Of a DNA stretch of 64,000 bases, positions 14,883 to 35,245 are shown piece by piece. Source of the DNA: Candidatus Bathyarchaeia archaeon (GTDB lineage Archaea > Thermoproteota > Bathyarchaeia > Bathyarchaeales > Bathycorpusculaceae); assembly GCA_050010755.1 (NCBI GenBank), contig JBEKKK010000001.1, positions 1,120,001 to 1,184,000 of the forward strand, read 5' to 3'. Position 1 is the stretch's first letter, and every line of letters starts with the position of its first letter. Both the position numbers and the translations under genes were made by a program. Below the pieces are notes generated by a model. It saw only the letters and a program-made list of their open reading frames with translations, was not told the DNA's origin and ran no database searches.

Positions 14883-14963
14883 TCACCACTCAACATGCAA
14901 ATTTACGGTTACACATTACAAAGCAACATTACAACAGACGTAAAGAAAAAAAGGGGAGGGGGG
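14883..14963 (+). repeat. Dispersed intergenic repeat, copy A
   Basis: 77/81 identical to the reverse complement of 35165-35245 (manual alignment). Confidence 0.92.
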
Positions 14964-15105
14964 CGAACACACGAGAAAAGAGCATCGAAGCAGTTCGCAG
15001 ACAAACCTCCAAAAGACAAAACAGACCGAGCTTTACAAGCGCGCAAGCAACCGGCAACGATGGAAACGCGAGGGCGAAATGGTTTAATGTCCGTTTTGTT
15101 AATCC

Positions 15106-17937
15106 TTGAAATCAAAGTTCCCAGTTCAGGATGTTTACGCTTTGAAGCAGCAGTTTCCGAAAGAGGAATACGACCTCCCATTCTTCAAGGAAGCAGGTTA
15201 CGTCAGAAAACAGTGCCCCAAATGCAAAGAATACTATTGGACGCAGCTTCCCGATAAGCCCACTTGCGGCGAGTCTAACTCGGAAGGATGCGCATCCTAC
15301 ACCTTCATAAACAACCCGCCCACCCGCAAAAAGTACAGCCTGCCCGAGATGCGCGAAGCCTTCCTCTCATTCTTCGAAAAAAACGGCCACACCCGCATAA
15401 AACCCTACCCCGTCGTGGCAAGATGGAGAGGCGATATCTACCTAACCCACGCAAGCATAATCGACTTCCAACCATACGTAACAGAAGGAATCGCCCCACC
15501 ACCCGCAAACCCACTCGTAATCAGCCAACCCTGCATTAGACTCGTCGACGTGGACAACACAGGCCCCACGTTCGGCAGACACGAAACCATCTTCGAAATG
15601 GGCGGAGCCCACGCCTTCAACCTCCCAGACAAAGAAGTGTACTGGAAAGACCAGACCGTAAGATACCAAAACGACTTCGTAACAAACGTCCTCGGCGTCA
15701 AACCAGAAGAAATCGTCTACAAAGAAGCCGTCTGGATCGGCGGAGGAAACGCAGGACCATGCGTAGAATCCATCATCAGAGGCCTAGAAGTAGACACCCT
15801 CGTATTCATGCAATTCAAACTTGTCAACGACCAGTTCATCAAACTCCCAATCAGAACCGTCGACACAGGCTACGGCATAGACCGATACGCGTGGCTCAGC
15901 CAAGGCGCCCCCAGCGGCTTCCACGCAGCCTACGGCGAACTCCTCGACAAAGTCTTCAAGATGGCAGGCATACCCAAAATCGACCAAGCACTGCTGAAGA
16001 AAGTTGCCGAAGCCTCAGGCCTAGTCAACCTTGACAAGACCACCAGCAGAACCCTGACACGAAAGAAAGAAGCACAACTCGTCGGCACAAACGTGGAAGA
16101 ACTCGAAAAATTCGTAACACCCATCGAGAACGCCTTCGCAGTCACAGACCACACAAAATGCCTCAGCTTCATACTCTCCGAAGGCGTAGTACCCTCCAAC
16201 ATCCAGGAAGGCTACCTAGCAAGACTCATCTTCCGCAGAGTCTACCGCCTCCTAAGAATACTGGAAATACCAGACAAACTCCACGAAATCGTAGACATGC
16301 AAATCAACCTATGGGGCAAAGACTACCCCCAACTCAAAGAAATGCACAGCGAAATAACAGAAATGCTCAAAGTCGAAGAAGAAAAATTCGAAGAAACCAT
16401 CAAACGCGGAGAAGGAATGGTCAAACGCATCTCAGCCGAGCTGAAAAAACAAGGAAAGAAAACCATCCCCGTCGAAACCCTAACCGAACTCTACGACTCC
16501 CACGGCCTACCGCCCGAAATAGTCAAACAGGCCGCAGAACAAGAAAACCTCAACGTGGAACTGCCGGACAACTTCTACAACCTCATAGCCCAGAGACACA
16601 TGAACGCCCCGACAGCCATCGAAAAGGAAGCCACACCAGAACTGGAAATGAAGGCAAAGGTCACGGGCCTCCCACCAACGTTGGCCCTATACTATCAAGA
16701 TCAATACATGAAAGAGTTTGAAGCAAAAGTTCTGAAAGTGATAGAAAAACAGTACGTCGTACTCGACAGAACATGCTTCTTCCCAGAAGGCGGCGGACAA
16801 CCAGCAGACAGCGGACACCTAACATTCGAAAACAAGAAGACAGAGGTTACCGACGTCCAGAAAATAGGCAACGTCATAATCCACAAAGTAAAGGGCGACG
16901 TTCCCAAAGAAGGCAGCGTGCTCAGAGGAGCCATCAATTGGGAGAAACGTTACAGCCTGATGAAAAACCACACGGCGACACACGTGGTCGGCGGAGCCGC
17001 CAGAAGAGTCCTCGGCCAACACGTTTGGCAATACGGCACACAGAAAGGCGTAGAAGGCTCGAGGCTCGACATCTCACACTACCGCCGATTAACGTTGGAA
17101 GAGGTTCAAAAGATAGAGACTCTGGCCAACGAGGCGATCCAAAGGAACCTCCCTGTTGACACGAAGTGGATGTCCAGAAACGACGCTGAAAGCCTCTACG
17201 GCTTCAGGCTCTACCAGGGCGGAGCAGTGCCCGGCAAAGAAATCCGAGTGGTCAGAACCGACGACTGGGATGTCGAAGCCTGCGCCGGAACACACCTGAA
17301 CAACACGGGCGAAATTGGGTTTCTAAAGATAACCCACACCGAAAGAGTCCAAGACGGAGTCGAGAGACTCGCGTACTCGGTCGGAATACCAGCCGTAAAG
17401 GCCGTCCAGAAGAACGAGGAACTGCTCGTCAGAGTCTCCGAAACGCTGAACGCCCCCTTAGAAAAGCTGGACAAGACCGCTGAGAAACTCGTGAAGGAAC
17501 TGAAGGAAGCAGGCGTTGAAAGAAGAAGATTGCTCAAAGAAATAGCCATCCAGGACAGCGCCAAACTCAAGGGCCAAGTCCAGACGGCGGAAAGCAAGAC
17601 GGTAGCCGACGTCAAACTCGTAATCAGAGACTTCAAGGAATCCATCGACATCGACAGAATGGTCCAGACCGCAAACGAAATAATCAAACAAGACGAGGCA
17701 ACGGTCACCCTGTTCTACGGATCAGACGGAAAAAACGCGAGAATAATGGTCATGGCCGGCAAAGCCGCAGTCGAAAAAGGAGTCGACGCCAGCGAGGTTG
17801 TCAGAGAATCAGCCCCCATAATAGGCGGAGGAGGAGGCGGAAGACCCAACTTTGCACAGGGCGGCGGAACGCAGACCGCAAAACTGGCCGAAGCGGTTAG
17901 AAAGGCCGAAGAAACCGTGAGAAAAAGACTGAAATAG
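15106..17937 (+). CDS. alaS: Alanine--tRNA ligase (archaeal type)
   Basis: YPVVARWR, VDTGYGIDR, DHTKC, editing motifs HTATH and CAGTH, C-Ala GGGGGRPNFAQGGG. Confidence 0.97.
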   Translation: MKSKFPVQDVYALKQQFPKEEYDLPFFKEAGYVRKQCPKCKEYYWTQLPDKPTCGESNSEGCASYTFINNPPTRKKYSLPEMREAFLSFFEKNGHTRIKPYPVVARWRGDIYLTHASIIDFQPYVTEGIAPPPANPLVISQPCIRLVDVDNTGPTFGRHETIFEMGGAHAFNLPDKEVYWKDQTVRYQNDFVTNVLGVKPEEIVYKEAVWIGGGNAGPCVESIIRGLEVDTLVFMQFKLVNDQFIKLPIRTVDTGYGIDRYAWLSQGAPSGFHAAYGELLDKVFKMAGIPKIDQALLKKVAEASGLVNLDKTTSRTLTRKKEAQLVGTNVEELEKFVTPIENAFAVTDHTKCLSFILSEGVVPSNIQEGYLARLIFRRVYRLLRILEIPDKLHEIVDMQINLWGKDYPQLKEMHSEITEMLKVEEEKFEETIKRGEGMVKRISAELKKQGKKTIPVETLTELYDSHGLPPEIVKQAAEQENLNVELPDNFYNLIAQRHMNAPTAIEKEATPELEMKAKVTGLPPTLALYYQDQYMKEFEAKVLKVIEKQYVVLDRTCFFPEGGGQPADSGHLTFENKKTEVTDVQKIGNVIIHKVKGDVPKEGSVLRGAINWEKRYSLMKNHTATHVVGGAARRVLGQHVWQYGTQKGVEGSRLDISHYRRLTLEEVQKIETLANEAIQRNLPVDTKWMSRNDAESLYGFRLYQGGAVPGKEIRVVRTDDWDVEACAGTHLNNTGEIGFLKITHTERVQDGVERLAYSVGIPAVKAVQKNEELLVRVSETLNAPLEKLDKTAEKLVKELKEAGVERRRLLKEIAIQDSAKLKGQVQTAESKTVADVKLVIRDFKESIDIDRMVQTANEIIKQDEATVTLFYGSDGKNARIMVMAGKAAVEKGVDASEVVRESAPIIGGGGGGRPNFAQGGGTQTAKLAEAVRKAEETVRKRLK

Positions 17938-18057
17938 CAAGAAAACTGAGAAACTCGCGCCCGTTTTGACATAAGCGGTCCTCGCAGGCAAAAATCGTCT
18001 CCAAACAGCAAAGAGAAACCAAGGCAATAATCAACCCTTTTTCGGAATATGCGCAAA

Positions 18058-18128
18058 CAACATTGACACACACGTGGATCCATTACGCGGATCCATTACA
18101 TCTGATGTGTGTGAAAAAAAGGGAGGGG
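18058..18128 (+). repeat. Dispersed intergenic repeat, degenerate copy B1
   Basis: CAACAT...GGATCCATTAC twice at 13-bp period, ATCTGATGT, A7-GGGAGGGG. Confidence 0.75.
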
Positions 18129-18236
18129 CCAACCATTCATCATCGAAATCGCACATGATATCGGACGCAAACACGAAGAAAAAGGGGCAACGCTCAAGTC
18201 AGGATCAAGATTTAGCCTTTTCCGGAACGCTCAAAG

Positions 18237-18309
18237 CAACATGGAAAACTTACATTGCAACATTACATTGCAACATTACATCTGATGTAAAGAAAAAAAA
18301 GGGAGGGGG
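18237..18309 (+). repeat. Dispersed intergenic repeat, copy B2
   Basis: CAACATGGAAA-TTAC-N9-TTAC-N9-TTAC-N7-GTAA-AG-A8-GGGAGGGGG. Confidence 0.88.
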
Positions 18310-18318
18310 CCCGTTGAA

Positions 18319-19959
18319 CTATGCTTCCATGCTTGAAAAGAGTTTCTTCATGCCTTGCACGCAATAGTGGCGGGTCAACACGAGAAGGATTGCGCCAATT
18401 GCCGCTGTCGAGACGATTGTCAATAGCAATGATACAGTCAGCCCGCCTCCGAACCCAGTAAATAATCCCGTGCCTTCATACAATAATAAAGGAGTTAGAA
18501 TCGCCAACGTCGCCAAGCCACCCATAACGAACTCTATCAGGAACCCGGTTAGGGAGATGTATCTTGCCCTCGGTCCCGCGTCAAAGCTGGGGTATCGCGA
18601 GCCTATTCCAAGCCCCACATACCCTTGCACCATCATGTTGAAGGCCGCGAAAACCAAGGCAGCCAAGAACAGGCCTGGGGCAACAGGAGCCAGAAATTGC
18701 ATCAACAAAGCGATTGCCAGTATTCCTGCCCCTGAGAAAATCCATGGGAGAAAAAGCTTTCCGAGGATCAGTTCGTCCGCTGAGATGGGAAGCATATAGA
18801 TGTTGGCGATGGATCTTCCTTCCTGCCCAATGCTGATTGAAGAGAGAATCATGGGCAAAAACAGGGAAACTTCAACTAGAAGCACTAAGCTCACGCCCGA
18901 TAGCCCAGTCTTTGGATTCGATCCACTCGTCAACACCGGGAGCAAGGAAGCAACTACAAGCACCACGGGTACAGCTAGGAATCTGGCCATTTCTCTTCGT
19001 CTTGCTAGGGATCTTAATTCCTTGGAGGCTACCGCGAACGCGACTGGATCCAGCCACAGGAACGACCTGCCTTGAGGAACGTACACGGTTGAAGTCGACA
19101 AGGTAATGGTAACGGGCACCGGAGACCAGTATCTGATTCTCAGTCGAGTTGCAGCCTCGAATATCAAGAACGTGAACACGACGGAAAGTGCTCCAAAAAG
19201 GGCCGTTCTTGCCACGTCTGTTGTTATTAAGTAGACGACGGCGACTGATGGCCAGATTACGGGAACAAACCAAGCGAAGTTGACGCCCGCGGCGATGCCT
19301 GAAAGGGCAGTGTAGAGGATGTATGGATTGAAGGCTATCTGCACGGCGACTAAAAGGACAACGACGAGTAGGATGCGAAGGATGACTCCGAGCCTTCCGC
19401 TCTTCTTGTAAAGCGTTGTCGAGATGCGGTTCATCACCGACCTCAAGGCTTCCACAATCACAGCTCCCCAAAAGAACGCGAGGACGCAAATCACAACGAA
19501 AAACGGGACAATCGAAAGCATGCCTATATACGCGGCGAGCGGCACGGTCACCCCCAGACTGATAAATAGAATAGGCGAGTAAGTGAACACCACCGAAACG
19601 GCCGAGGCAACCACGTATTCTCTAGGAGACACTGGAAGCCAATTCACCGCTTCGCTCGAAGCAAGACCGCTGGCCTGCCCCAGCTCAAAGAGTATTCCCG
19701 CCAATATGACCACTGACGTGAGAATGACTGGAAGCACGATGAGAGAATTAATTGCGACAGGTCGAACCGAACTCATTAGGCTAGCCGGAATCAACGGTAG
19801 AGCAAACATGAGCAGCCCGAATGGAACCGCAAAAGCTACTACGTCCAAGAAGGCTAAGACCAACGGCTTCGAAAGAATGCTCCTGCGACCGAAACGGCTG
19901 GCTCGGAAGTACGACTTAAACAGAACAGAAGCGAGGCTCTTGACAGTTGACCAATTCAA
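18319..19959 (-). CDS. ABC exporter permease (multi-TM)
   Basis: About 14 TM; KELRSLARR motif; 4-nt overlap with the ATPase gene. Confidence 0.8.
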   Translation of the reverse strand: MNWSTVKSLASVLFKSYFRASRFGRRSILSKPLVLAFLDVVAFAVPFGLLMFALPLIPASLMSSVRPVAINSLIVLPVILTSVVILAGILFELGQASGLASSEAVNWLPVSPREYVVASAVSVVFTYSPILFISLGVTVPLAAYIGMLSIVPFFVVICVLAFFWGAVIVEALRSVMNRISTTLYKKSGRLGVILRILLVVVLLVAVQIAFNPYILYTALSGIAAGVNFAWFVPVIWPSVAVVYLITTDVARTALFGALSVVFTFLIFEAATRLRIRYWSPVPVTITLSTSTVYVPQGRSFLWLDPVAFAVASKELRSLARRREMARFLAVPVVLVVASLLPVLTSGSNPKTGLSGVSLVLLVEVSLFLPMILSSISIGQEGRSIANIYMLPISADELILGKLFLPWIFSGAGILAIALLMQFLAPVAPGLFLAALVFAAFNMMVQGYVGLGIGSRYPSFDAGPRARYISLTGFLIEFVMGGLATLAILTPLLLYEGTGLFTGFGGGLTVSLLLTIVSTAAIGAILLVLTRHYCVQGMKKLFSSMEA

Positions 19960-20720
19960 AGCTTCAATGCCTCAACGATCTTCTCCGTGTCTTCACTACC
20001 CGTAAGCTTCAAGAAGGTATCCTCAAGCGTCGAACCAGGCATCCCTGCCCTCGATCTCAGCTCTTGCACATTCCCCTCGGCAATGATATTTCCCTCATTC
20101 ATAATGGTGATTCTGCTGCACATCGCCTCTGCAATTTCAAGAACGTGAGTACTGAAAAGGATTGAAACGCCTTCGCCCGCCAAACGGTGAAGAACATCCT
20201 TGACTATCTTGGCTGACCTAGGATCTAAACCGTTCAACGCTTCGTCCAAAACGAGAGCACGCGGCCGGTGAAGCAGAGCCGAAGTAATTGCTATTTTCTG
20301 CTTCATTCCTTGAGAGAAGCCGCTCATAACCTCGTTCACATGCTCATCCATCTGCAACGCCTTAAGCAGCTCATCAACCCTCTCTCGCCGAACCTTCAAG
20401 TCGATACCGTAAGCTGTGCCTACAAAATCAAGATACTCCGAAGCCGTCAGATACTCGTAAAGATAAGGCAGTTCCGGAACATAGCCCACAAGTCTTTTGG
20501 CGTCAATGGGCCGCTGCAGCACATCCACGCCCCAAAGGCTGATCTTGCCACGATCAGGCTTGACAATACTCATGATCATCTTCATGGTCGTGCTTTTCCC
20601 AGATCCGTTCGGACCGAGAAGGCCATGAACCTCACCCGGCAACACGGAAAGCGTCATATCTCTTACAGCCACGTTATTGCCGAAGGATTTCGTCACCGAT
20701 TCTAAGATAATCCCGTCCAT
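19956..20720 (-). CDS. ABC transporter ATP-binding protein
   Basis: GPNGSGKST Walker A, FSQGMKQK signature, LVLDE, STH. Confidence 0.95.
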   Translation of the reverse strand: MDGIILESVTKSFGNNVAVRDMTLSVLPGEVHGLLGPNGSGKSTTMKMIMSIVKPDRGKISLWGVDVLQRPIDAKRLVGYVPELPYLYEYLTASEYLDFVGTAYGIDLKVRRERVDELLKALQMDEHVNEVMSGFSQGMKQKIAITSALLHRPRALVLDEALNGLDPRSAKIVKDVLHRLAGEGVSILFSTHVLEIAEAMCSRITIMNEGNIIAEGNVQELRSRAGMPGSTLEDTFLKLTGSEDTEKIVEALKL

Positions 20721-20900
20721 CTCAAATCCTCATTCTCACTAAATCTTACGCATTAAGGCAATCCAATGGAACTGAAATGCTTTGAACAACTTTCTTGACA
20801 AGTATATAGCTTTTAGTCTTTCACAATTGACTTCGCAGCTTCCTATTCGTCTGCTATCAGCTTTGAACGTTGGCGTTTCCGTGCTTTTTGCTGAGTAGGA

Positions 20901-21737
20901 TCACTGGTAGGACCAGCTCTCGTAGTTCCATTTGTAAGCGCTGCCGTTTGTCAGTAACCAAGCATCGCAACCCACTGGACCGCTCACCCATGTTTTCCCG
21001 CCGTCGCTAGAGTAGTACCATATCCACGAGTACCCCGCAGTATAGTTTGAGTTCGTGTAATCTGCCTTGTCGTTGATAGAATCAACAAATACATGGCCTG
21101 GTTGGGCAAAGGGGTCATAGCTGTATTTAATGACGGCTACTTTCTGAGTTATCATGAAAAGGGTGTAACCTGCAGGCACCCGAGTTTCATTGTCCCATTG
21201 CAGGGTTTGATTTCCATAATTGATTTCAATGCTCACAGACAGCGTAGTAGCTTCGCTAACTGACAGCCCTAATTCCCTAAATGCAGAGAGATTAAACAAG
21301 TCATAATACTCGCTGAGCAGATTTCCAAAATCCGTTTTTGTAACATTACCATTCTGCAGAAGTATTTCATAGTCGCTCAGAAGTTGATTATACGTATTGT
21401 TTATGTCTTGTTGGACGAACAAGTCGCTATAGTTCTTGCTGAACTCACTGATGAGGCTACGCAAAGGCGGCATCAAAGTCAGGTAGTTATTGCCTGTAAA
21501 GTATGAATAGTTGCCATACAACGTGCCGTATTCACTCAGGAGCAAATCGTACTTGTTCGTCGCATTGGAGTAGCTTGATGCGACTGTGTCCAGTGAGTTA
21601 TTAGCGCTATTCAGTTGTCCACTGTTGTTAGTATTCTCGAGGTAGTAGTAACCAACAAACGCCGAGGCTAGGGATGCCCACACAATTGTCGCGAGCATTG
21701 CGAATACAAGCGTTCTTTTTTCGACCATACTATCCAC
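20901..21737 (-). CDS. Membrane-anchored coiled-coil protein with C-terminal DUF4430/transcobalamin-like domain
   Basis: N-terminal TM, heptad repeats, GHVFVDSIN...SWIWY...GPVGCDAWLLTNG. Confidence 0.65.
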   Translation of the reverse strand: MDSMVEKRTLVFAMLATIVWASLASAFVGYYYLENTNNSGQLNSANNSLDTVASSYSNATNKYDLLLSEYGTLYGNYSYFTGNNYLTLMPPLRSLISEFSKNYSDLFVQQDINNTYNQLLSDYEILLQNGNVTKTDFGNLLSEYYDLFNLSAFRELGLSVSEATTLSVSIEINYGNQTLQWDNETRVPAGYTLFMITQKVAVIKYSYDPFAQPGHVFVDSINDKADYTNSNYTAGYSWIWYYSSDGGKTWVSGPVGCDAWLLTNGSAYKWNYESWSYQ

Positions 21738-22269
21738 CCGCTTTTGAGCCGTTCAGAGCATTTATAACTGGAAGAAACAGGACTCCAAAAACTACGGTGT
21801 TGGAAATTATATGTAACAGCGAATAAAATGCGCCAATAGCTATGGCAGTGAAAAAGGCTAAAGACAGGCTCTCCCCTGTTAAAACCAGCTGCAGGCCATA
21901 TCCTAAATTAGTGATTAAGTCATAGACAAGAGCGATGACAGCACCCAAAAGTGCGGTTTCCAAAGAGAACCTTGCTGAGAAATTCATGTTAGGTGTAAAC
22001 TTTCGGTAAGCGCCTCCCAGACCGCCGGCGATTATCATGCCTGCCATCTGGAAAGGGATGTTCAAGCCACCAAATCCATAGGGGGAAACGAACCCGTTAA
22101 TCAACATTATGAAACTTCCGAAACATGCGCCGACCACTGCTCCTTCCGCCAATCCGACAATAAATGAGAAGAAAGAGGTGAACTCCACATTTGGCGGCCT
22201 TGGAGCAATCTGGAGGGCTATACATGCCGCTGTCATGACTATGAAGAAAGCGAGTTTCCTTGCATCCAT
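21730..22269 (-). CDS. ECF transporter S-component (CbrT/cobalamin-like)
   Basis: PPNVEF, YDLITN, HIISN; 5-6 TM; overlaps the DUF4430 gene. Confidence 0.7.
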   Translation of the reverse strand: MDARKLAFFIVMTAACIALQIAPRPPNVEFTSFFSFIVGLAEGAVVGACFGSFIMLINGFVSPYGFGGLNIPFQMAGMIIAGGLGGAYRKFTPNMNFSARFSLETALLGAVIALVYDLITNLGYGLQLVLTGESLSLAFFTAIAIGAFYSLLHIISNTVVFGVLFLPVINALNGSKAGG

Positions 22270-22376
22270 GTGAGTTATTTCCTTGTTGGTTAGATAATCC
22301 ATCCAATAGTTATAAAAGAATTGCCGTGAAAATTCTATAAACAACTGCTAACAGCCTATAAGCGAGGAATGCTTAG

Positions 22377-23018
22377 TTGAAGACTCTTGAAATCATCGTC
22401 AAGGTGGCAGCAAAAATAGCGCCCGGGCGTTTGCCCTCGTTCGCTGAAGCTCATGTCGTCATGGCTCTAGAGGACATCGGCAATGCAGGAACTGTGGGCA
22501 GGTTGAAACTTTCAAAAGACCTTCAGCTGGGCGAAGGTGAAACGAGGACTCTAGTCAGGCATCTCCAGAAGGAAGGGTTGATTGAAATTTCAAGAACAGG
22601 AATTTCCCTGTCCGCAGCAGGGAGAAAGCTGCTCTCCAGCCTGAAGGGAGTCTTGAGTGAACAAGTGGAGATTCCCTCTTCCCCTTTGACCGTAGGGCGC
22701 TTCAACGTGGCAGTTCAAATCAAAGGAATGAAAAGCTCCGTAAGGTACGGTCTGGAACAAAGAGACGCCGCAATAACTGCAGGTGCAAAAGGAGCCACGA
22801 CTCTGGTGTTTACCAATAACAAATTAGCCATGCCTGGAACTGGAGAAGTCTTGTCAGAAACTGGCTCCTCCATCGTTGGAGTTTTGTCAAGACTGAGCTT
22901 GAAGGAGGGCGACGTCATAGTCATTGGAAGTGCAGATGATAGGTTCAAGGCAGAACTTGGAGTAAGGGCTGCAGCGCTTGAACTCCTAAAAACAAAAGAT
23001 AGAAAAGCCTTCGACTGA
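22377..23018 (+). CDS. Winged-HTH plus DUF4443-like putative regulator
   Basis: GRLKLSKDLQLGEGETRTLVRHL wHTH; GLEQRDAAITAGAKGATT. Confidence 0.75.
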   Translation: MKTLEIIVKVAAKIAPGRLPSFAEAHVVMALEDIGNAGTVGRLKLSKDLQLGEGETRTLVRHLQKEGLIEISRTGISLSAAGRKLLSSLKGVLSEQVEIPSSPLTVGRFNVAVQIKGMKSSVRYGLEQRDAAITAGAKGATTLVFTNNKLAMPGTGEVLSETGSSIVGVLSRLSLKEGDVIVIGSADDRFKAELGVRAAALELLKTKDRKAFD

Positions 23019-23125
23019 ACAATGAGCGATTTCTAATTTTAACTTTGTCTGGCGAACTTTTGAAATTTGGGTCGAATGTAACTTAATGCTCCGTGGCCCG
23101 CATTGGTATCGCGCGGGTAACAATC

Positions 23126-23521
23126 TCACAGATTGTCTAGAACTGTGTTAAAGAGCTGGGCGACCTGTACACCTGTTGGAAGTCCCAGGAGGAGGCTCTT
23201 GAGTGCGATTGCATCGTAATGAGCCGTGCTGGGTTCGAGTTTTTTAGATTCTACAAGCCAGCTACGGAAGTTTTTGACTTCCACTTCAACTTCGTCTTCA
23301 AGTTCCTTTCGTCTTTCTCTGGTTGCCTTTTCATATTCTAACCTGCGTGTTTTGATTGTCGCAAATATGTCACGCTGGCTGTACTCCTCATACAGCGTGA
23401 AGGTTTTTGGGGGTTTCGTCTTAGTTTCAAATCTAACTGGCTCGGGGAGTTCTCCAGTTTGGGGCTGCATAGGCAAAAGCTTACTGGACAGGGAATATCT
23501 TGTTTGCGAAAGCCCCATCAT
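23126..23521 (-). CDS. Hypothetical protein
   Basis: 131-aa ORF filling the gap; helical, protein-like composition. Confidence 0.55.
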   Translation of the reverse strand: MMGLSQTRYSLSSKLLPMQPQTGELPEPVRFETKTKPPKTFTLYEEYSQRDIFATIKTRRLEYEKATRERRKELEDEVEVEVKNFRSWLVESKKLEPSTAHYDAIALKSLLLGLPTGVQVAQLFNTVLDNL

Positions 23522-23709
23522 GATTTAGAATTCACATCAGGCTAGGGTTTCGTAACAGTGGACTTAGAGACGCTCGAGTCCATTTCTCTACCCAAAGTCC
23601 GGAAAACCCACTTGCTCATTTCCTATAATTGCTGCTCGCAGCGTCGAGACTACTTGGGACTACTTGGATTTGACAAGGCAGTGAAACATTCTTTCGAATC
23701 ACAAGGAGC

Positions 23710-24213
23710 TTATTCTGTTAGTTTCTCCTTCAAGAAGTCTCTTTGCTGTTTTCTGTCCATCTTTTCTAATTCGCTTTTGTATTTGGCGTGGATAAGCTTC
23801 AATTTGCAGCTGGCGTAGAGAGCATCGTAGACTACTCTTGCTTTTTCTACAGCTTCATGGTCGTCCTTGGCTGCTATGCCAATCCCTGTCATGATTGCTT
23901 CTAGACCTGCGGCTTCGGGGACTGTTTCCATCTTGTCTGTGTCTGCAGCTCGGACGATTTTAGCAAGTTCCAGAACCGTTGGGTCTTTTATTTTGTATCT
24001 TTCGACTATGGAGTCAAAACTGCATTTTTCGCCATGATGGCCTAACTCAACATTGGGGGCATCGTAGGGTATTGCGTTCTCCTTCTTCACGATCTCCTCA
24101 ATCTTCGCTGCTGCAACAAAGACAAATTCGGCTTCGCGGTCAACGAATCTCTTGATCAACCAGGGACAAGCTGTTCTGTCAACATGCACGTATTGTCTTG
24201 TCACCCATTTCAT
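23710..24213 (-). CDS. chrB: Chromate-resistance ChrB C-terminal-domain protein
   Basis: MKWVTR..VHVDRTACPWLIKRFVD, HHGEKCSFD, IVRAAD, PEAAGL. Confidence 0.85.
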   Translation of the reverse strand: MKWVTRQYVHVDRTACPWLIKRFVDREAEFVFVAAAKIEEIVKKENAIPYDAPNVELGHHGEKCSFDSIVERYKIKDPTVLELAKIVRAADTDKMETVPEAAGLEAIMTGIGIAAKDDHEAVEKARVVYDALYASCKLKLIHAKYKSELEKMDRKQQRDFLKEKLTE

Positions 24214-24400
24214 TCTTATCACCGACCAACAGCTGAAAATGCCAGACACATAAATAAGCCCTTTTCATGTAACGGTCAGTATGTTTATTCGAGTTGCGGT
24301 TCGCAAAATTGACCGTCCAATAGCAAAGGATTAATGCTGGTTCCCCCACTTTATTAGTGGGTGCCAGATGTGAGGAATAGCGTTCTCTGTTCGTAAGAAC

Positions 24401-24413
24401 AAAACCTTTAATA
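24401..24413 (+). promoter_or_regulatory. Putative BRE/TATA promoter of leuS
   Basis: AAAACC-TTTAATA about 30 nt upstream of the ATG at 24440. Confidence 0.5.
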
Positions 24414-27361: not shown

Positions 27362-27602
27362 GTCAAATGCTTTCCGCGCGCCGTTAAACGGTTGAGACGT
27401 AACTGCTGAAAACCATCTTTAAAACTCTTTTTACCCTATACCTAGATAGAACTCGCCCCGAATTTTCCCACGCAAAAGCCCCCACCACTTTTGCAGCGAG
27501 TACGCGACCAATCAGAGAATTCTGGTGAATTTGAAATTCTCACCATGAAGCAATATAGAATAAAATATATCGACCAAACCCTTCCATTTATTGGCTGGAA
27601 AA

Positions 27603-27713
27603 GGATCCGTAGCGCAGCATGGATACAATTTGAGCCATAAAGCGCGTCGGCCTTCTAAGCCAAAAGCTGTAGAAAGCCGAAAGTCCTGGGTTCAAATCCC
27701 AGCGGATCCGCCA
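27603..27713 (+). tRNA. tRNA-Arg(TCT) with two introns (27625-27640 in the D-loop; 27658-27674 at 37/38) and encoded CCA
   Basis: GGATCCG/CGGATCC acceptor, GCGC/GCGC D-stem, TCGGC/GCCGA anticodon stem, CTGGG-TTCAAAT-CCCAG; removing both inserts gives a 78-nt cloverleaf. Confidence 0.92.
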
Positions 27714-28215
27714 TCATCAAGTGATTTTTCCTTTGGCCATCTTCCATTTTCTTTTTGTGCGAAACGCTCGCGCTGTTTGACTCCCTTCGAAAGATGCCCA
27801 AGCAACCGCATCTGCGATCAGTTGAAATATCCAGCATATAGAAGCCTAATCGAGTGCTTCTGGGCGAGTTGAAGACCCAAGAATGAGGATGATATTTGCC
27901 ATGTTTTTGAAAGATGAAAGACAGGTGGGAAAGCCAATATCGTTGATTTGAAGAACGCATGTTTCGGATATAGACTTAAACGACAAGCTTCACTTTAGAC
28001 ATTTCACGTTTTCAACTCTTGCCGCATACTTATCATCAACGTAGAAAGAAAAGAAAGAATAAACTTGGATATTCTTGGATTAGGCACGTAGAAGTAATAG
28101 GAGAGACTTTAGGTTTTTTCGAGGTTAGCACGCTGCAAGCGCACTAGACCATTTGCATACCACTAAATTGAAAAGCACACCGAGTCAGTGAAATGCTTGG
28201 GCAATTAAGAATGAG

Positions 28216-29475
28216 ATGGGATATCGTTTGGGGATGATGCGTTCAGTTGGTCCTTGGACAAAAGTCCTATCCAACTTGTCATCAATCGTGCATGTGTTAG
28301 TGACAGTGTTCTTTGGGTACCTGATTTCGTTGAGACAGACTGTAAGCCTCGATTTCTTCTTTGTCGCCGTGTTTGTTGTAACGTCGAAGCTTTTTTCAAT
28401 AGTTTTCGCAGAAGACAGGAGCGCTTCGAAGAAGACGATAGTTTACTCCACCATAGTCTTAGCCTTGTTAATTCTCCTTCTAACGCGACTTTCAACTTTT
28501 GAAATAATAATGGGCCTATTGATTCTGGTGCTCTACTCCCTCTATCCCCTATGCAACGGAAAAGCCCCGTTTGACGTCTTACATCATGCACTGAGATACA
28601 TCTTTCTCTTCATCTTAGGCTTTGGTTCGCAAGCATTTTGGAATGAATCGGCCCTGATGACGATATCGGCAATAGTGCTCTTCTCTCTGGCTGGAGAACT
28701 CCTTGCAGGATTAGCCAAGGGCAGCGATTTTCCTAAGAGTGCGGCTTCATTATTAGGAACCAGAGGATCGCTAACTGCAATTACTTCCCTCATCTTCGTT
28801 GCCACATTGATATCATCCTTCGTTATGAATAATCTGTTTGAGTTTCCGATCCCAATCAACGGCACGCTTGTTCCTTTCTACGTGATACCTGCCTTGGCCA
28901 TAGATCTTTATTTGACGATTCCTTTGATGAGAAAACTGAACGCGAAACACGTGGAAGCATTTCATTTGATGAGAAGAAAAGAAGTGGCAGCCCTTGTAGT
29001 CATGTCACTCGTAATATTGGTTGTATTCCAAACTGGAAGAATCGGCACAACAGTGACAGTCAACTCAACAGATTACAGCTTCAACGTAGGCATCAGAACC
29101 TTCATAGCAGGACCGCACAGTTGGGACGTACCGTGGATAGTTTTCAATTACGTAAACGAAGATAATTATTACTACGTTGTCTTCCACAAAGAAGGAGCCT
29201 TGGAATTGTCGCAGAAAATTGATGGGCAGCTACGATTATACGTATCCTCGTGTGCAACGCAGCTCACGCCATTCGAATGGCACAACTTTCAAATCGTCCT
29301 CAACGCGACGACTGTAACGGTGGAATTGGACGGAAAATACCGATTAACGACACCAAGAGAGCTGTATGCTGAGAATTCCAGTATAATAATTTCTCCAACA
29401 ACACCAAACCTAGCCCTCTGGATCGCCTGCTCCTACCGCATAACACTAATCAATGAAACCGATGCAGGCGCTTGA
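28216..29475 (+). CDS. Membrane protein: degenerate UbiA-like TM region plus C-terminal beta-sandwich (lectin/LamG-like)
   Basis: About 10 TM, KAPFDVLHH; C-terminal DNYYYV...EWHNFQIVLNATTVTVELDG. Confidence 0.6.
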   Translation: MGYRLGMMRSVGPWTKVLSNLSSIVHVLVTVFFGYLISLRQTVSLDFFFVAVFVVTSKLFSIVFAEDRSASKKTIVYSTIVLALLILLLTRLSTFEIIMGLLILVLYSLYPLCNGKAPFDVLHHALRYIFLFILGFGSQAFWNESALMTISAIVLFSLAGELLAGLAKGSDFPKSAASLLGTRGSLTAITSLIFVATLISSFVMNNLFEFPIPINGTLVPFYVIPALAIDLYLTIPLMRKLNAKHVEAFHLMRRKEVAALVVMSLVILVVFQTGRIGTTVTVNSTDYSFNVGIRTFIAGPHSWDVPWIVFNYVNEDNYYYVVFHKEGALELSQKIDGQLRLYVSSCATQLTPFEWHNFQIVLNATTVTVELDGKYRLTTPRELYAENSSIIISPTTPNLALWIACSYRITLINETDAGA

Positions 29476-29799
29476 CCAGATGTGAAGCAATGGCGTCTTC
29501 TGTTGATGTACATATCTAAACTCTCTTTGAGATTGAGCGCAAACGAGCGCAAGCTAGACGCGTTGCCCTATCCCGATACCACTGTGTTTGGGGATTGAAA
29601 TTCAATCTCTTTCTTCTTCTATTTCGTCTATTTTAGCTTGCTATTAATTATCTCTCTTACTTTCCTCACCTTGACACAAGCAAAAAACAAGAAAACAAAC
29701 ACAGACAACAGATAGACACACGCAATGCGCGTGCTATCCCTGCTGGCCAATATGACCCCGCGTTTCATTTGGCGCTAGCTGCCTTATGAAAAACACGTA

Positions 29800-30042
29800 T
29801 CAAGGGAGATTGTATCGTTGTCTTCGTCCGCACTCAGGGCAGAAGCGAGCTGAGACGGAGATTTTGCTTTTACAGTAGGGGCAGATTTTTGAGATCCGTT
29901 GGGGACGCAACAGAGTCCCGCAAAAATTGCAGTAGTTAGAGTTAGAAGGAACTTGACTCCCGCATCGAGGACAAATCAAGTACTGTCCAGCGTATGAAGG
30001 AACGGGCATCAGGACCCAGCCTCCGATGTTCAACTCGTCCAC
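29800..30042 (-). CDS. Double zinc-ribbon protein
   Basis: CPRC, CNFC, CPYC, CPEC. Confidence 0.75.
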   Translation of the reverse strand: MDELNIGGWVLMPVPSYAGQYLICPRCGSQVPSNSNYCNFCGTLLRPQRISKICPYCKSKISVSARFCPECGRRQRYNLP

Positions 30043-30385
30043 CTCGTTCGAATTCGGCCCTCGATATTCACTTCGCGCGTGCTAAGCGTAGTCGCTTTTC
30101 CTAGACTTTCCACGAAGACAACAATTGCAACTCGTATTAACAAGGGTTACGGACAACAAAACCCTTTTGGTCCACACCTTTCTTTAGCAGCATTACCACT
30201 ATGACACACTATAACGTTAATAGCGTTCAAGCGTGGCTGACATGAGTGCGCGAGTTCAAACGCTCATAGGCTACTCCCAGATTGGACAAATCTGCTCAAA
30301 GAATGCCAGGCAAGAAATCGGACCGTTTTTTGAAAGTGTTTATATCATCGATCTCGTCGGGTTTTAGTTAGTGAGATGAAAAAAC

Positions 30386-30634
30386 ATGAAGTTGTGGAAG
30401 ACTATCCTGATAGCAATAAGCGTGGCAATCTTGCCCCTCGCACTTGTAGGGGTCGGACAAGCTCAACAGTTGAATTGCTGGGGTCTGAGACCAAATCTGA
30501 CCGAAAGATCGGAGAACGCCGACTTCCCCGAACAACTGTTGTCTCAAGAGAGTGAAGACGACCCAGAGCTGAAGAGCGACACTGGTCACCATGCAGAAGA
30601 CGAAAACGACGCAGAAAACATAGGATCCAGTTAG
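30386..30634 (+). CDS. Small secreted acidic protein (possibly a remnant)
   Basis: Signal peptide ending in GQA; D/E-rich mature part; TTTATAT box upstream. Confidence 0.5.
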   Translation: MKLWKTILIAISVAILPLALVGVGQAQQLNCWGLRPNLTERSENADFPEQLLSQESEDDPELKSDTGHHAEDENDAENIGSS

Positions 30635-30802
30635 CTCAGTTCGCCACCATGCGAAAGCGAAGCGCCCAATGCCTTATCGGTGAGACCTGTCCCTGACAGT
30701 TCTGATACGAAGTAGCCCGTAAATGTTTCACAAACTCTTCTTTTTCGAGCTAGTTCTGATAAGCTAAAATTCTAGTCCGTGCTCTAGACAAAGTGATACC
30801 TA

Positions 30803-31588
30803 TTGAAGTTCCGCCAGAAACTCGGATTAATGAAACGAAAGGCACCGCAACTGTTTCTTATTGCTATAGTTGTCATTGTGATTGCAATCGTATTTCTGGA
30901 CACCCTGGAAGACACTCTGATAGAGGGAGGCTCGTTCGCAGGGACACCTCTCGCCATGATAGCAAACGCAATCGTAGCGTTCACGCAGGGCGTTACAAAA
31001 ACAGTCTCGACTTGGGGTTATTCTGGAATTTTCTTGTTGATGCTGCTCGAATCGAGTTCTCTGCCGATTCCCAGCGAGGTCATACTTCCGTTTTCTGGTT
31101 ACCTTGTTTCCCTGGGCCAACTCAACGTGTGGATAGTCATAATTGTCTCAACTCTTGCCGGCATAGCAGGCTCGCTGATAGACTACTACATTGGAATGAA
31201 GGGAACAGACCTGCTCGCGCGACGAAGAATTCTGGATAAGCTTCTCTTCAACAAAGCGCGTCTCGAAACGGCTCAGAAATGGTTCGACAGGTACGGCGCC
31301 TTCGCAGTATTTCTGAGCCGAATGATCCCAGGATTTAGGACGCTGGTGTCATTTCCGGCGGGGGCCGTGAAGATGTCCGTATGGAAGTTTGTCGCGTACA
31401 CAACTGGCGGATGCCTAATCTGGAGTACCTTTCTAATTTACGTAGGAGTATATTTGGGCACCGACTGGCGAATGGTCGCGAGCGTATCACGTTACCTGAT
31501 CATAGGAGCTGTGGCGGTAATCCTTGTTTGGCTTGCCGTGTTCTTGATCAGAAGAAAAAAAGAAGTCCGTAAAATTCAGCATATTTGA
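30803..31588 (+). CDS. DedA family membrane protein
   Basis: LESSSLPIPSEVILPFSG, SRMIPGFRTLVSFPAG. Confidence 0.92.
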   Translation: MKFRQKLGLMKRKAPQLFLIAIVVIVIAIVFLDTLEDTLIEGGSFAGTPLAMIANAIVAFTQGVTKTVSTWGYSGIFLLMLLESSSLPIPSEVILPFSGYLVSLGQLNVWIVIIVSTLAGIAGSLIDYYIGMKGTDLLARRRILDKLLFNKARLETAQKWFDRYGAFAVFLSRMIPGFRTLVSFPAGAVKMSVWKFVAYTTGGCLIWSTFLIYVGVYLGTDWRMVASVSRYLIIGAVAVILVWLAVFLIRRKKEVRKIQHI

Positions 31589-31597
31589 TTATGAGGG

Positions 31598-32569
31598 CTA
31601 CGGTGGTGCCACCCATGGAATCATCATACTCTTCTGCCTGTCCATCTCCTTCCAGTAGTCCCACTCTTTTGCGGTCATTCTCTCTATTTCTTCGATCATG
31701 CCATGGGTCAGGTGTTCGAATCTTTTTTGCATTCTCAGATATTCCTCCACATGTTTCCTCGGTTCTGGCCTGAAACTCAGGCTGAATTTCCCGTTTTCAT
31801 ACTCCCATGAAACCCAGAGCCCAGTCTCCAGAGCGCTTCTGCTCAGGTCCAGAGTGTATTTTGGATCTGTGAACCAGCCCTTAGGACAGGGGACTAGAAG
31901 ATGGATGAACGCTGGGCCGTCGGCCGCCAAGGCCTTCTTCGCCTTGTTGATGAAGTCCAAAGGCGGGTAAAGCGTGGACGTAGCAACATATCTCACGCCA
32001 GGGTGTGCGGCGATTATCAAGGCCACGTTCTTCTTCATCCTCAAGTTGCCAATTCTCTTAACCTTGCCCGTGGGAGTGAACGTTGTAGACGCTCCCCATG
32101 GCGTTGTGCTTGATGCCTGAATCCCCGTGTTGGCGTATGATTCGTTATCGTACAACACGTACAGGAACCTCTTGTAATCGTAACTCATGGCCATGGACAA
32201 ACCTGAGAACCCAATGTCGCCCGTCCCGCCGTCCCCCCCGTACACAACGACGTTAACTTTCTCCTTCTTCCTCTTCCCCTTCATCATCAGACTTCTGAAC
32301 GCCGCCGCTGTGCCCACGCCCGCCGCTCCCCCAGCGCCGAGTTGGGTGTGATACCAGGGAACGGAATATGGCGAGGAAAGGAATTGATGGCCGTTCGCCA
32401 CGTACATGCATCCGGTCGGGCCGAGAATCACCGTTTTTGGACCCGCCGCCTTGAGCAGCAGACGGTAGCCCAAGGCTGCTCCGCATCCAGCGCACGTTCT
32501 GTGGCCACTCGTGTACAAGTCTGCTGAAGGGACGTCTCTGATGGTTCTGATAATAGGTCGTTCGCTCAT
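31598..32569 (-). CDS. 2-oxoacid:ferredoxin oxidoreductase beta subunit (oxalate oxidoreductase-like)
   Basis: GHRTCAGC, GPTGCMYVAN, GDGG TPP motif, YDNESYANTGIQ, PCPKGW. Confidence 0.9.
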   Translation of the reverse strand: MSERPIIRTIRDVPSADLYTSGHRTCAGCGAALGYRLLLKAAGPKTVILGPTGCMYVANGHQFLSSPYSVPWYHTQLGAGGAAGVGTAAAFRSLMMKGKRKKEKVNVVVYGGDGGTGDIGFSGLSMAMSYDYKRFLYVLYDNESYANTGIQASSTTPWGASTTFTPTGKVKRIGNLRMKKNVALIIAAHPGVRYVATSTLYPPLDFINKAKKALAADGPAFIHLLVPCPKGWFTDPKYTLDLSRSALETGLWVSWEYENGKFSLSFRPEPRKHVEEYLRMQKRFEHLTHGMIEEIERMTAKEWDYWKEMDRQKSMMIPWVAPP

Positions 32570-33816
32570 TGATTCTCACCTCTCAGTGTGGGCCACCACA
32601 CGTGTTTCTCAACTACTCCCTTTCGTGAGCCTTTCTGCAGCAACATGACGGCCTGTTCAAAATGCTCGACCGAAGGCTCTCTTCCGCCGACGAACATGAA
32701 GTCCAACAGCAGCGGCCGTGACCTGCTCTCATACAGGGCTGATTTGACCTCGTTAAACAACACACTGGAGGAGTCGGCAGAGCCAAAAGAATATGAAAAG
32801 TCAACAATTCCTACAGCCTTGACTTTCCCCAATGCTTCAACAAGCTCCTTCCATGGAAAGGGCCTGAAATAACGGATCCTGATGACGCCGACCTTGAGGC
32901 CTCCTTGTCGAAGCTTCGTTGCAACGTGCACCGCGTCTTTAGCGTATGCCCCCATGGTCACAAGCGCTATTTCCGCATCGTCCATGTACTTTTCCTCGAT
33001 GAATGGTGGATATTTTCTTCCGACGAAAGCTGCATAATCTCTCCACGCCTCTTGAATAACTTCCATTGCATGCGTCATCGCGTTATCAACTACCTTCCGA
33101 AGCTCGGGACCTATAAGAGATGGAGCTATGTGCTGTGCCTTAGTTACAGGTCCATAGGCAGGATCCAGCGGGTACTGAGGCTTGTACGGCGGGAGAAACC
33201 TCGCAACTCTCTCCCTGGATGGCGGCTCGACTGGAGCGGATATGTGTGTTATCGCTGCGCCGTCTACTGCCACGAAGCTCGGCAGGAGCACCCTACGGTT
33301 TTCAGAGACTCTGTACGCGGCTAGAACCATGTCCAGGGCTTCTTGAGGATCCTTGGCCCATGACATCAGCCAGCCGCTGTCCCTGAAAGTGAGCACGTCG
33401 TTCCATTCCATTCCGAAGTTGCCAGGATCATCAAGGGCCCTGCAGCCGGCCATGGCGACGACAGGCAGTTGCCCCATTGCCGTTACGATGATGGGTTCTG
33501 CCGCGTATGCAAGGCCCACACCTGAGCTTCCCACGAAGGTTCTGGCCCCGACCGCAGAAGCGTGTTTGGCTATTTCAAACTGTGAGTGTTCAGAGTCTGC
33601 ACCTATTATCTCGGCAGCAAACTCTCCGTCTGCCAGCATTTTGGCCAGAGAATTCATGACCCCCGTATACGGTCTAATCGGGTATGCAGCTATGACGTCA
33701 ACGTCCGCAAGCTTAACGGCTTCAGCAATCGCCCTCGTCCCAGTCCACATGAATCTCTTTGGCAGCGTTCTGACAACAGATTTTGGAGCGGTCTTCGGCT
33801 TGCTCAATACTTTCAC
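32566..33816 (-). CDS. 2-oxoacid:ferredoxin oxidoreductase alpha subunit (oxalate oxidoreductase-like)
   Basis: ADVDVIAAYPIRPYTG, SEH, GSSGVG, RALDDPGNFG, FRPFP. Confidence 0.9.
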   Translation of the reverse strand: MKVLSKPKTAPKSVVRTLPKRFMWTGTRAIAEAVKLADVDVIAAYPIRPYTGVMNSLAKMLADGEFAAEIIGADSEHSQFEIAKHASAVGARTFVGSSGVGLAYAAEPIIVTAMGQLPVVAMAGCRALDDPGNFGMEWNDVLTFRDSGWLMSWAKDPQEALDMVLAAYRVSENRRVLLPSFVAVDGAAITHISAPVEPPSRERVARFLPPYKPQYPLDPAYGPVTKAQHIAPSLIGPELRKVVDNAMTHAMEVIQEAWRDYAAFVGRKYPPFIEEKYMDDAEIALVTMGAYAKDAVHVATKLRQGGLKVGVIRIRYFRPFPWKELVEALGKVKAVGIVDFSYSFGSADSSSVLFNEVKSALYESRSRPLLLDFMFVGGREPSVEHFEQAVMLLQKGSRKGVVEKHVWWPTLRGENQ

Positions 33817-33819
33817 CGT

Positions 33820-34977
33820 CTAATAACCATATTCAACGAGCGCATCCTCAATCGCGGTTATCTCCTTCTCATTCAGCCCTTCTTCCGCCAGAAGTTCACT
33901 CATCATGCTAATCGCTTTCGAGGGGCAAATCCGCGCGCATATGCCGCAGCCCTTGCAATAATTCAAATCTATCACGATGCGCTTGGAGTCGATTGCACCA
34001 TCTGGACAGTAGAGAGAACACATCTTACAGTCGGTGCATTTGCTCTTATCTATGGTCGGCCTTAGGAATCTGGCGAATGAGGTCGTGAACCCGACGTTCT
34101 TCTTGTTCTTGGAAGGGCCGAATTCAATCAGGCCAGGAGACAAAGCCTGCCACGACGGTATCGCTTTTATTCTCTCCGCGTAGGACAATGCATCGGCCGC
34201 GGCCTTTTGGTACCTTCGGTACGTTTCTAAATCCCACATTCCTTCGGATTTGCAGGACGATTTTGACTTCCTCTTCTGAGCCATCAGCGTTTCTTTCGCA
34301 GTGATTCTGACCTCAACCGGATCCACATCAGAATAGACTCTTTTCACCAAACCAGTCTTATCTCCATCGCCCGCAGAATCGAGTGCATCCAGCAAATCGT
34401 CGACGCTCACTACATTCCAAGCCTTTGCTAACGCGGCTAACAAGGGAAACGCGATGTTAGTATCGTACTCTTTCGCCCTTATCGTAACCAGCTTTCCGCA
34501 CCAGTCCTGCGCGAGGCACCTCTTCTTAACCAACCTCACGACATCATTCGAGGACAACGACGTGTTAACAACGAGAACAGCGTCTTTCTTCGCGCCGTCG
34601 AACAGCAAAGCCCTCTGCGAAGTCTGGCTGACGAGTATGGTGGGTTCCATGACGACTATGGCGCTGAAAATCTCTCCAACAGGCTCAACCTCCTCGTGCA
34701 GAGTGACATCAATCTTGGGATTACCAATGACAGTGTAAAAGATCATGGGTATGTTATCCCGTTCGGGAGAGTCATCATACCTCATATAATAGTAAGATTC
34801 TCGCCCCGAGACCACGCCTGCAGTTGCCAAGATGCGAGCGAAAGCCGCTGCATGACCAGTGTTTAGCACTCCTCTGCCATGAATGATGACCCAATTCAAC
34901 TGGTCATATTCTGGTATCACGCTTTTCACATCCAGCTCCATGCTGCCGCAATCTAATAAGCCTAGTGTCGGCTTCAC
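33820..34977 (-). CDS. 2-oxoacid:ferredoxin oxidoreductase gamma-delta fusion subunit (2x[4Fe-4S])
   Basis: HGRGV, YDDSPER, LVVNT gamma domain; CTDCKMCSLYCP and CKGCGICARICP; start could be the ATG at 34941. Confidence 0.88.
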   Translation of the reverse strand: MKPTLGLLDCGSMELDVKSVIPEYDQLNWVIIHGRGVLNTGHAAAFARILATAGVVSGRESYYYMRYDDSPERDNIPMIFYTVIGNPKIDVTLHEEVEPVGEIFSAIVVMEPTILVSQTSQRALLFDGAKKDAVLVVNTSLSSNDVVRLVKKRCLAQDWCGKLVTIRAKEYDTNIAFPLLAALAKAWNVVSVDDLLDALDSAGDGDKTGLVKRVYSDVDPVEVRITAKETLMAQKRKSKSSCKSEGMWDLETYRRYQKAAADALSYAERIKAIPSWQALSPGLIEFGPSKNKKNVGFTTSFARFLRPTIDKSKCTDCKMCSLYCPDGAIDSKRIVIDLNYCKGCGICARICPSKAISMMSELLAEEGLNEKEITAIEDALVEYGY

Positions 34978-35164
34978 GATTTTTTTCTCACAACGGTTCT
35001 CGCCCTTCTTGCTGGAAGCTTGTGTTGAAATTCTGGATTTGTGTATGATTACTCACGCGTGTGCCTGTTCGATAATTCTGAGTGCCACGTTTTTGATTGC
35101 CTTGGCTTGGTGGCAAGGGGTTGCCCGTGGCTATTCGGAAGAAACCTGCGGCTCGTCCCGTCGA

Positions 35165-35245
35165 CCCCCCTCCCCTTTTTTTCTTTACGTCTGTTGTAAT
35201 GTTGCTTTGTAATGTGTGAGCGTAAATTTCCATGTTGGGTGGTGA
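35165..35245 (-). repeat. Dispersed intergenic repeat, copy C
   Basis: Reverse complement is 77/81 identical to 14883-14963. Confidence 0.92.

Follow-up and report, generated by a model that had tools for sequence, protein, structure and literature searches.

What kind of sequence stands in four similar, non-coding copies within one stretch of an uncultured archaeal chromosome? We addressed this question for positions 1,120,001 to 1,184,000 of contig JBEKKK010000001.1 of a Candidatus Bathyarchaeia archaeon (assembly GCA_050010755.1). This stretch of 64,000 nucleotides (G000:C1:1120001-1184000) is called the window below, and it belongs to a genome of 2.19 Mb in 8 contigs, with 47.7% G+C and 93% completeness. 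A preliminary description, made from the letters of the window, had reported four copies (A, B1, B2 and C) of an element of about 80 bp, in which phased TTAC boxes are followed by a GTAA box, an A-tract and a G-string. All four were found where it had placed them, by direct inspection and with a covariance/sequence model from 105 relatives, which has exactly four window matches at E<1e-15 (the next-best match, at 10.6 bits and E 0.018, lies within a gene and was excluded from the count). The reported identity of 77/81 between copies A and C was obtained again, and the pattern TTAC-N9-TTAC-N9-TTAC-N7-GTAA, with at most one mismatch, has three window matches versus 0.00 expected from 100 dinucleotide shuffles. 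The four copies belong to a far larger intergenic repeat family, the core of which could be a phased recognition array for a lineage-specific protein.

A high-copy intergenic repeat family

A profile of the four copies gives 76 nhmmer matches in the genome at E<1e-3, of which 70 remain at E<1e-6. There are at least 70 copies in 47 loci, of which 28 are single, 15 are double and 4 are triple direct arrays. The arrays consist of two or three cores in direct orientation with linkers of about 110 nt between them. The figure of four copies of an 80-bp element has to be replaced, both in copy number and in extent, as what is repeated reaches beyond 80 bp. Among the 47 loci, 46 lie outside the 2242 genes predicted with a purpose-written, crude hexamer-based caller. 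A regular expression for the tail of the element has 56 genomic matches, and all but one have the element or part of it. In two other peat runs, examined on DNA contigs, bins with the element stand at 22-34 times the depth of their flanks; the joints in these runs connect core to core and look like repeat artefacts. Among 21 runs listed as containing the locus, none is an RNA run. The family is the most repeated DNA of this genome.

The core, of about 75 nt, starts with a CAACATG-type leader and a first TTTAC box, and continues with CATTAC boxes at a strict 13-nt period, separated by free 7-nt spacers. The sequence GAYGTAAAG then closes the TTAC-N7-GTAA dyad, and an A-run and a G-string follow. 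Copy A has these parts in the order CAACATG leader, TTTAC, two CATTAC boxes, GACGTAAAG, A7 and GGGGAGGGGGG. Cores with one, two, three and four boxes number 11, 43, 11 and 2, respectively, and the A-run is 7 nt long in 43 of 65 copies and 8 nt long in 16. Three core subtypes recur. Copy B2 has ATTGCAA spacers, a perfect TTACATC-T-GATGTAA dyad, A8 and GGGAGGGGG. Copy B1 does lack the outer TTAC and GTAA, as had been reported, but it was wrongly called degenerate: it has CACACAC/GTGTGTG in place of TTTAC/GTAAA, its spacers contain GGATCC, and it is a variant rather than a decayed copy because it belongs to the third subtype, which has the same outer sequences and GGATCC spacers and is seen at least eight times in the genome.

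The repeat is also modular outside the core. A T-run/CGGAACAC box is frequently found upstream of the core, and an upstream (U) box of the B1 type precedes many cores across the genome. In several loci a further module, TTTGTCAC...CAACATTACAAC...CTCACAAAC...G-string, is found ahead of the first core; cores after the Z module have no T-rich box. The linkers recur about 10-20 times and are composed of 32% A, 30% C, 18% G and 20% T. In a second family, distinct in sequence and present in 5-7 copies, a G-string comes after TTACCAC boxes that have a 12-13-nt period. A strict regular expression for the grammar common to both families has 32 sites in the genome versus 0 in the reversed genome. The combination of fixed phase and free spacers, first noticed in the window, is a property of the whole family, and it is kept through genus-level divergence.

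Half-cores, made of the last CATTAC box, the dyad, the A-run and the G-string, were also seen at G000 C2:1352-1394, C2:199369-199407 and C1:205487-205527. Both C2 half-cores are directly downstream of a strong box (14.8 bits) resembling a transcription factor B recognition element (BRE) and TATA box, and the C1 half-core follows a TTTTAAAT stretch (noted by eye) and has a tRNA-Ser gene about 100 bp downstream.

Changing contents at stable sites

At least nine loci, including copy A between tiaS and alaS and copy C next to a phosphoribosyltransferase gene, have same-site counterparts in related metagenome populations, where the unique flanks are 73-91% identical. The spacers change faster than these surroundings, in line with the turnover suggested in the preliminary description. 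Among 12 orthologous pairs, selected for a unique downstream flank so that repeated linkers were avoided, the spacers are identical at 93 of 144 positions (64.6%) and the flanks at 1187 of 1402 (84.7%). The box columns are uninformative on turnover, since the pattern used for collecting alignment A2 required CATTAC and GAYGT, and these columns are invariant by construction. At three sites among the 12 pairs, different subtypes are found at the same site in two populations. Orthologous arrays differ by whole core and linker units with a conserved junction after the G-string, and one ortholog of copy C has an extra 13-nt unit.

Empty orthologous sites were also found. Two composite insertions of 653 and 430 bp in related contigs are missing from this genome at window positions ~50225 and ~54700. 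No inverted ends or target duplications are visible at these two insertion/empty-site pairs, the junctions of which are fuzzy because their flanks are only 85-91% identical. Furthermore, there is no element in the tiaS-alaS spacer of three more distant genomes of the same genus (G002, G003 and G004; L124-L126). In these three genomes the spacer is about 450 bp long, and where the repeat would be there seems to be a small opposite-strand gene.

Distribution among relatives

The scan of related genomes found diverged copies, with their spacing kept, in the genus and in a few genera of the family. In the profile search all four other genomes of the genus have matches, at least 1-26 each (lower bounds, as 29 candidates were scored per genome), and copies are also present in four genomes of other genera (two of them in genus g61), which brings the family total to 9 of 151 genomes, this genome included. 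No element was found in the 150 genomes of a class-level sample. It should be noted that absence in relatives is weak evidence, because metagenome-assembled genomes (MAGs) from short reads often lose or collapse repeats. Sequence patterns are less sensitive: the strict pattern matches at 52 sites here but in none of 40 relatives, and the exact pattern has no match in a collection of genomes from 185,579 species, and both are too strict given that the profile search did find the diverged copies in the genus. In the version from the same genus, the order of leader, phased boxes, GTAA box, A-run and G-run is kept, with one CATTAC box fewer, at a distance where coding DNA is only 76-80% identical to that of this genome. 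In another genus, TTACCA boxes at the same period are followed by an A-run and a G-run.

Among the matches listed, at least 123 metagenome loci were found, mostly on peat or wetland contigs and many at contig ends. About 105 distinct family members in this list pass a simple filter for the A-run and G-run, and about a dozen of the matches are unrelated. A viral contig collection gave two chance matches, both without the tail. As a separate observation, L133 (G021), L134 (G107) and L136 (G003), which are assigned to different genera, have in common a near-identical stretch of at least ~200 bp, with 1-3 differences, around a T2-like core without G-string. Either a mobile element common to the three or cross-contamination could account for this stretch.

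Mobility and replication origin

The end of a non-autonomous mobile element was one of the candidates in the preliminary description. [quoted passage not shown] The high copy number, the near-identity of distant copies such as A and C, the confinement to a few genera and the two composite insertions missing here are consistent with it, and TTAC is the target or cleavage tetranucleotide of IS608. Against this stand the stability of sites in related populations and the direct rather than inverted orientation of copies in arrays; no inverted partner was seen either, and no terminal inverted repeats (TIRs) or target duplications are visible at the two insertions, with their fuzzy junctions. A search for a co-occurring enzyme was equally unproductive for transposases. 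The Y1 transposase model PF01797 has no match in this 93% complete genome (positive controls in 6 of 14 genomes), the TnpB domain and RVT_1 have none either (control genomes positive), and, as for a multi-copy transposase, no protein family in the genome has more than three members at ≥70% identity. Two Rep models (PF02407 and PF01446) have no match, but the control genomes were silent too, which makes this negative uninformative. We consider current mobility of this kind improbable. Two more specific candidates were rejected: an IS200/IS605 or REP-RAYT system (no Y1_Tnp, no TnpB) and a retroelement with a polypurine tract (no RVT_1).

Some known mobile elements can be compared with the repeat. 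The PATEs derived from IS200/IS605, and IS608 with its TTAC site, resemble the repeat in having TTAC near small hairpins and no inverted terminal repeats, whereas here there is no TnpA or TnpB in the genome and copies stay at orthologous sites. The MITEs, including those with internal minisatellites (PMC4596501, PMC10969869), are likewise short, non-coding and multi-copy with a variable internal tandem repeat, whereas TIRs and target-site duplications were not seen here and no parent insertion sequence was found.

An origin-like or iteron-like site was another candidate. The layout does resemble that of an origin recognition box (ORB), to which Orc1/Cdc6 binds, in that the dyad precedes an A-rich stretch and a G-string. 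However, the genome has a single cdc6 gene, at C1:514870-516111, against 47 loci of the repeat, and the closest of these is more than 20 kb away from it. The 810-bp spacer upstream of cdc6 (C1:516112-516921) carries two canonical ORB-type elements with dyad and G-string, in opposite orientation at ~516261 and ~516440, and is likely the replication origin. These elements have a different dyad and a spacer of 3-4 nt, whereas the repeat has an A-run of 7-8 nt and additional phased boxes. It is therefore extremely unlikely that the repeat provides ORB-like Orc1/Cdc6 binding sites. A polar chromosome signal was rejected as well, the strands being mixed, by eye, on both sides of the cdc6 region.

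Position relative to genes and transcription

The four window copies are located downstream of a gene and in its orientation, as had been described, and this holds for the upstream gene at 33 of the 47 loci (binomial p=0.008); the remaining 14 are anti-oriented. Tandem spacers split 20:9 for upstream co-orientation, and the downstream gene is co-oriented at 25 of 46 loci. By spacer class, 29 loci are tandem, 12 convergent and 5 divergent, compared with 24.0, 8.4 and 13.6 expected by spacer length (chi-square p=0.019; p=0.053 for the test by count). Copies A and C, however, are also upstream of co-oriented genes. An association with tRNA genes was rejected, with 3 of 47 loci within ~300 bp of a tRNA gene, about chance by a rough estimate.

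Oligo-T is a signal of archaeal intrinsic terminators. The cassette would accordingly, if it acted as a bidirectional transcription stop or insulator, end transcripts from both sides, with the A7-8 (T7-8 on the other strand) stopping those from one side and the T4-5 of the U box those from the other. The enrichment in convergent spacers and the depletion in divergent ones fit this possibility. Moreover, for 15 of the 19 genes with their 3′ end facing the G-string side, the element's own T-run is the first run of at least five T after the stop codon, 18-379 nt past it (for 13 of these 15 genes, no further than 130 nt), compared with only 26.5% of genes genome-wide that have T5 within 100 nt of the stop; the 15/19 is nearly forced by construction, however, because the element always carries a T-run and sits close to a stop codon. 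For co-oriented genes the first T5 is in the U box in only 7 of 30 cases, and a T-run alone leaves the phased boxes, the dyad and the G-string unexplained. We consider a terminator role rather unlikely.

A role in transcription initiation is much less probable still. Transcripts could start at CAACATG from the U box or linker end, or a BRE/TATA box on the reverse strand of the U box could drive transcription of the linker up to the T7-8, which would make promoters or small-RNA units. The reverse complement of some U boxes does resemble the BRE/TATA consensus (matrix from 34 tRNA upstream regions), with the best cases scoring 9-11.8 bits at a fixed position of -29 to -34. Nevertheless, the position weight matrix scores are at chance level: measured against random intergenic windows, no more than 3 of 70 on the reverse strand and 5 of 70 on the forward strand attain the 95th percentile. 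A promoter on either strand was rejected on this ground. The missing T-rich box in cores after the Z module, the lack of a conserved fold in the linkers and the co-orientation of the downstream gene in only about half of the loci also count against it. A Rho-type rut site was rejected separately: PF07497 has no match in the genome, with positive controls in 9 of 14 genomes.

Folding and RNA-level readings

The preliminary description recognized no named element, and none has emerged since. Rfam at gathering thresholds finds one tRNA in the whole window and nothing at the element copies, and a permissive search of the copies has C/D snoRNA models as best matches, at 17-19 bits versus thresholds of 38-43 (E 0.5-7). 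RNAalifold places 0 pairs across 105 cores, and on 20 linkers, on both strands, it gives about 0 kcal and essentially no pairs. The mean fold z is -0.8 on the + strand and -1.2 on the - strand. A structured RNA gene was hence rejected as a general reading, there being no Rfam match, no consensus fold and only a weak fold z. A small open reading frame (ORF) from the leader ATG was rejected too: the 13-nt period shifts the frame, the number of units varies, and many copies have ATC, ATT or ATA.

There is nevertheless some constraint on the dyad. The outer 6-bp stem, drawn by hand (TTTACG/CGTAAA, or CACACAC/GTGTGTG in subtype 3), is 86% paired versus 82% in shuffles, with none of 500 shuffles being as high, and its pair 32-64 is GC in 39, AU in 35, GU in 21 and other in 10 cases. 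The type of the 5′ box is also associated with that of the 3′ box in this genome (45, 8, 6 and 2; odds ratio 30). Both the association and the covariation counts overstate independent support, because the copies share descent and gene conversion. The local TTAC-N7-GTAA hairpin shows no covariation.

These features could still act in RNA. The element could lie in the 3′ untranslated region or read-through transcript of the upstream gene and bind an RNA-binding protein or the 30S subunit, as an A/C-rich, unstructured RNA in which CAUUAC repeats and a purine tract (A7-8 and GGGGAGGGG, which resembles a Shine-Dalgarno sequence) would affect mRNA stability or translation. The orientation bias toward the upstream gene, also among tandem spacers, agrees with this, as do the A/C-rich, G-poor and weakly folded top strand and some covariation in the outer stem. 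In addition, genes here have GGAGG-type Shine-Dalgarno sites at -15 to -9, a motif that is also present in the G-string; a search of the assembly with two short conserved motifs did not locate the 16S 3′ end. On the other hand, no start codon was seen at a constant distance behind the G-string in the listed downstream sequences, the anti-oriented loci do not fit, there is no consensus fold, and a T5 run ahead of the core, present in 14 of 30 co-oriented cases (7 in the U box and 7 further upstream), could stop transcription before it. An RNA-level role, whether through binding or through mRNA stability and translation, deserves to be kept in view as an unlikely but serious possibility.

Copies, neighbors and other features of the window

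Table 1. Copies of the repeat, associated modules and empty sites in the window
Feature	Window position	Strand	Score or remark
Copy A, core subtype T1	14886..14964	+	74.8 bits
Copy B1, core subtype T3	18052..18131	+	55.4 bits
Copy B2, core subtype T2	18233..18311	+	80 bits
Copy C, core subtype T1	35164..35242	-	78.7 bits
Upstream U box of B1 (T5 run and CGGAA...GCGCAAA)	18035..18057	+	
Linker B1-B2, A/C-rich, itself a repeat	18132..18232	+	~10-20 genomic occurrences
Empty site	50225..50245		653-bp composite insertion of the repeat family in related metagenome contig L005
Empty site	54695..54703		430-bp composite insertion of the repeat family in related metagenome contig L059

According to Pfam, the genes neighboring the copies encode TiaS, alanyl-tRNA synthetase and a phosphoribosyltransferase. 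Copy A is 83 nt past the tiaS stop and 142 nt ahead of the start of the alaS ORF, B2 ends 8 nt from the stop of a convergent gene (18319-19863, -), and copy C is located between the phosphoribosyltransferase gene (35372-36130, -) and a gene with a ferredoxin domain (33820-34977, -). The alaS ORF (15106-17937, +) begins with TTG as listed. Its true start is probably downstream of 15106, because residue 81 is the first of the Pfam core and there is an ATG further in, with a TTTACAA box ~30 nt upstream of that ATG.

Other features of the window were noted along the way. Another intergenic repeat, unrelated to the family described here, measures ~300-450 bp, has about 11 copies and contains a T8-9 run but no obvious ORF; it is found at window 59352-59861 (G000 C1:1179352-1179861) and at about 10 other loci, such as C1:1071506-1072148. 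An intron-containing tRNA of 97 nt (window 55546-55642, -; Rfam tRNA, 42.5 bits) is missed by default ARAGORN, which reports a tRNA-Arg at C1:1175543 when introns are allowed. With introns allowed, ARAGORN also gives a "tRNA-Pyl" at window ~27603 (G000 C1:1147603); this may be a false call, given that Rfam at gathering threshold sees no tRNA there.

A putative recognition array in a mosaic repeat

Among known systems, the repeat is best compared with two bacterial ones. The bacterial interspersed mosaic elements (BIMEs) of enterobacteria, built from repetitive extragenic palindromic (REP) units, are likewise high-copy, intergenic and mostly at the 3′ sides of genes, and are mosaics of a short conserved unit and several linker types, with a variable number of units and a species-specific sequence. 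The high-copy intergenic mosaic is thus found here, whereas the palindromic unit and the RAYT are not: REP units are imperfect palindromes of alternating orientation linked to RAYT, a Y1 transposase, and here the units are direct, with no single conserved palindrome and no Y1 transposase found. The BOX elements of Streptococcus pneumoniae are also modular and intergenic, one internal module being present in varying number, and have no transposase of their own. The BOX modules are 45-59 nt long with predicted stable folds, whereas here the variable module is the 13-nt box unit and the core and linker unit of ~180 bp, with a weak fold; the likeness is one of organization. Full-text literature searches with sequence strings of the element, and with Bathyarchaeia and repeat terms, returned no description of it among the entries listed.

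The repeats form a lineage-restricted, high-copy, mosaic intergenic family, BIME/BOX-like in organization, and we tentatively favor, short of an even chance, the reading in which the core is a phased recognition array for a putative lineage-specific protein. A sequence-specific protein of the host lineage would bind the array either as duplex DNA or in the form of a weak hairpin with the boxes exposed. The loci are old and for the most part stay where they are, while recombination or gene conversion, together with slippage of 13-nt and whole units, would exchange their contents between copies and keep them similar within a genome. The host would tolerate the family, or use it, mainly on the 3′ sides of genes. 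Both the binding and the exchange mechanism are what we infer from the phased boxes and the turnover pattern.

Several points weigh against this interpretation. Same-face binding on B-DNA is not an obvious geometry, because a period of 13 bp is not a helical repeat. The copies are related by descent and gene conversion, so that the conservation of boxes could in part reflect homogenization rather than selection, and the CATTAC and GAYGT columns of alignment A2 were fixed in advance, as mentioned above. The outer stem is evidently not required, because many mixed combinations of 5′ and 3′ boxes are retained (in the metagenome set 13 + 5, counted by eye, and in the genome 8 of 61 classified). 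The bias in orientation toward the upstream gene would also fit a role at the RNA level.

A more specific version is conceivable, though we hold it doubtful. The CATTAC array, dyad, A-tract and G-string might be the recognition module of a putative, undescribed archaeal exchange system guided by protein, with an enzyme unrelated to Y1/HUH, TnpB and reverse transcriptase, or might be loading or organizing sites for a lineage-specific chromatin protein. In an exchange system, cores and core-linker units would be swapped or added at fixed sites in a polar manner, with the 3′ junction conserved and the 5′ side varying.

Significance

Interspersed repeats of uncultured archaea are almost unstudied. 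The family described here breaks short-read assemblies and marks a narrow clade, and even if it were only a selfish or neutral repeat it would still help in annotating genomes and typing strains. Archaeal gene conversion could be studied through its cassette-like turnover. Its grammar, with 6-nt boxes at a 13-nt period, free spacers and an A-tract followed by a G-string, may serve as bait for a new archaeal nucleic-acid-binding protein.

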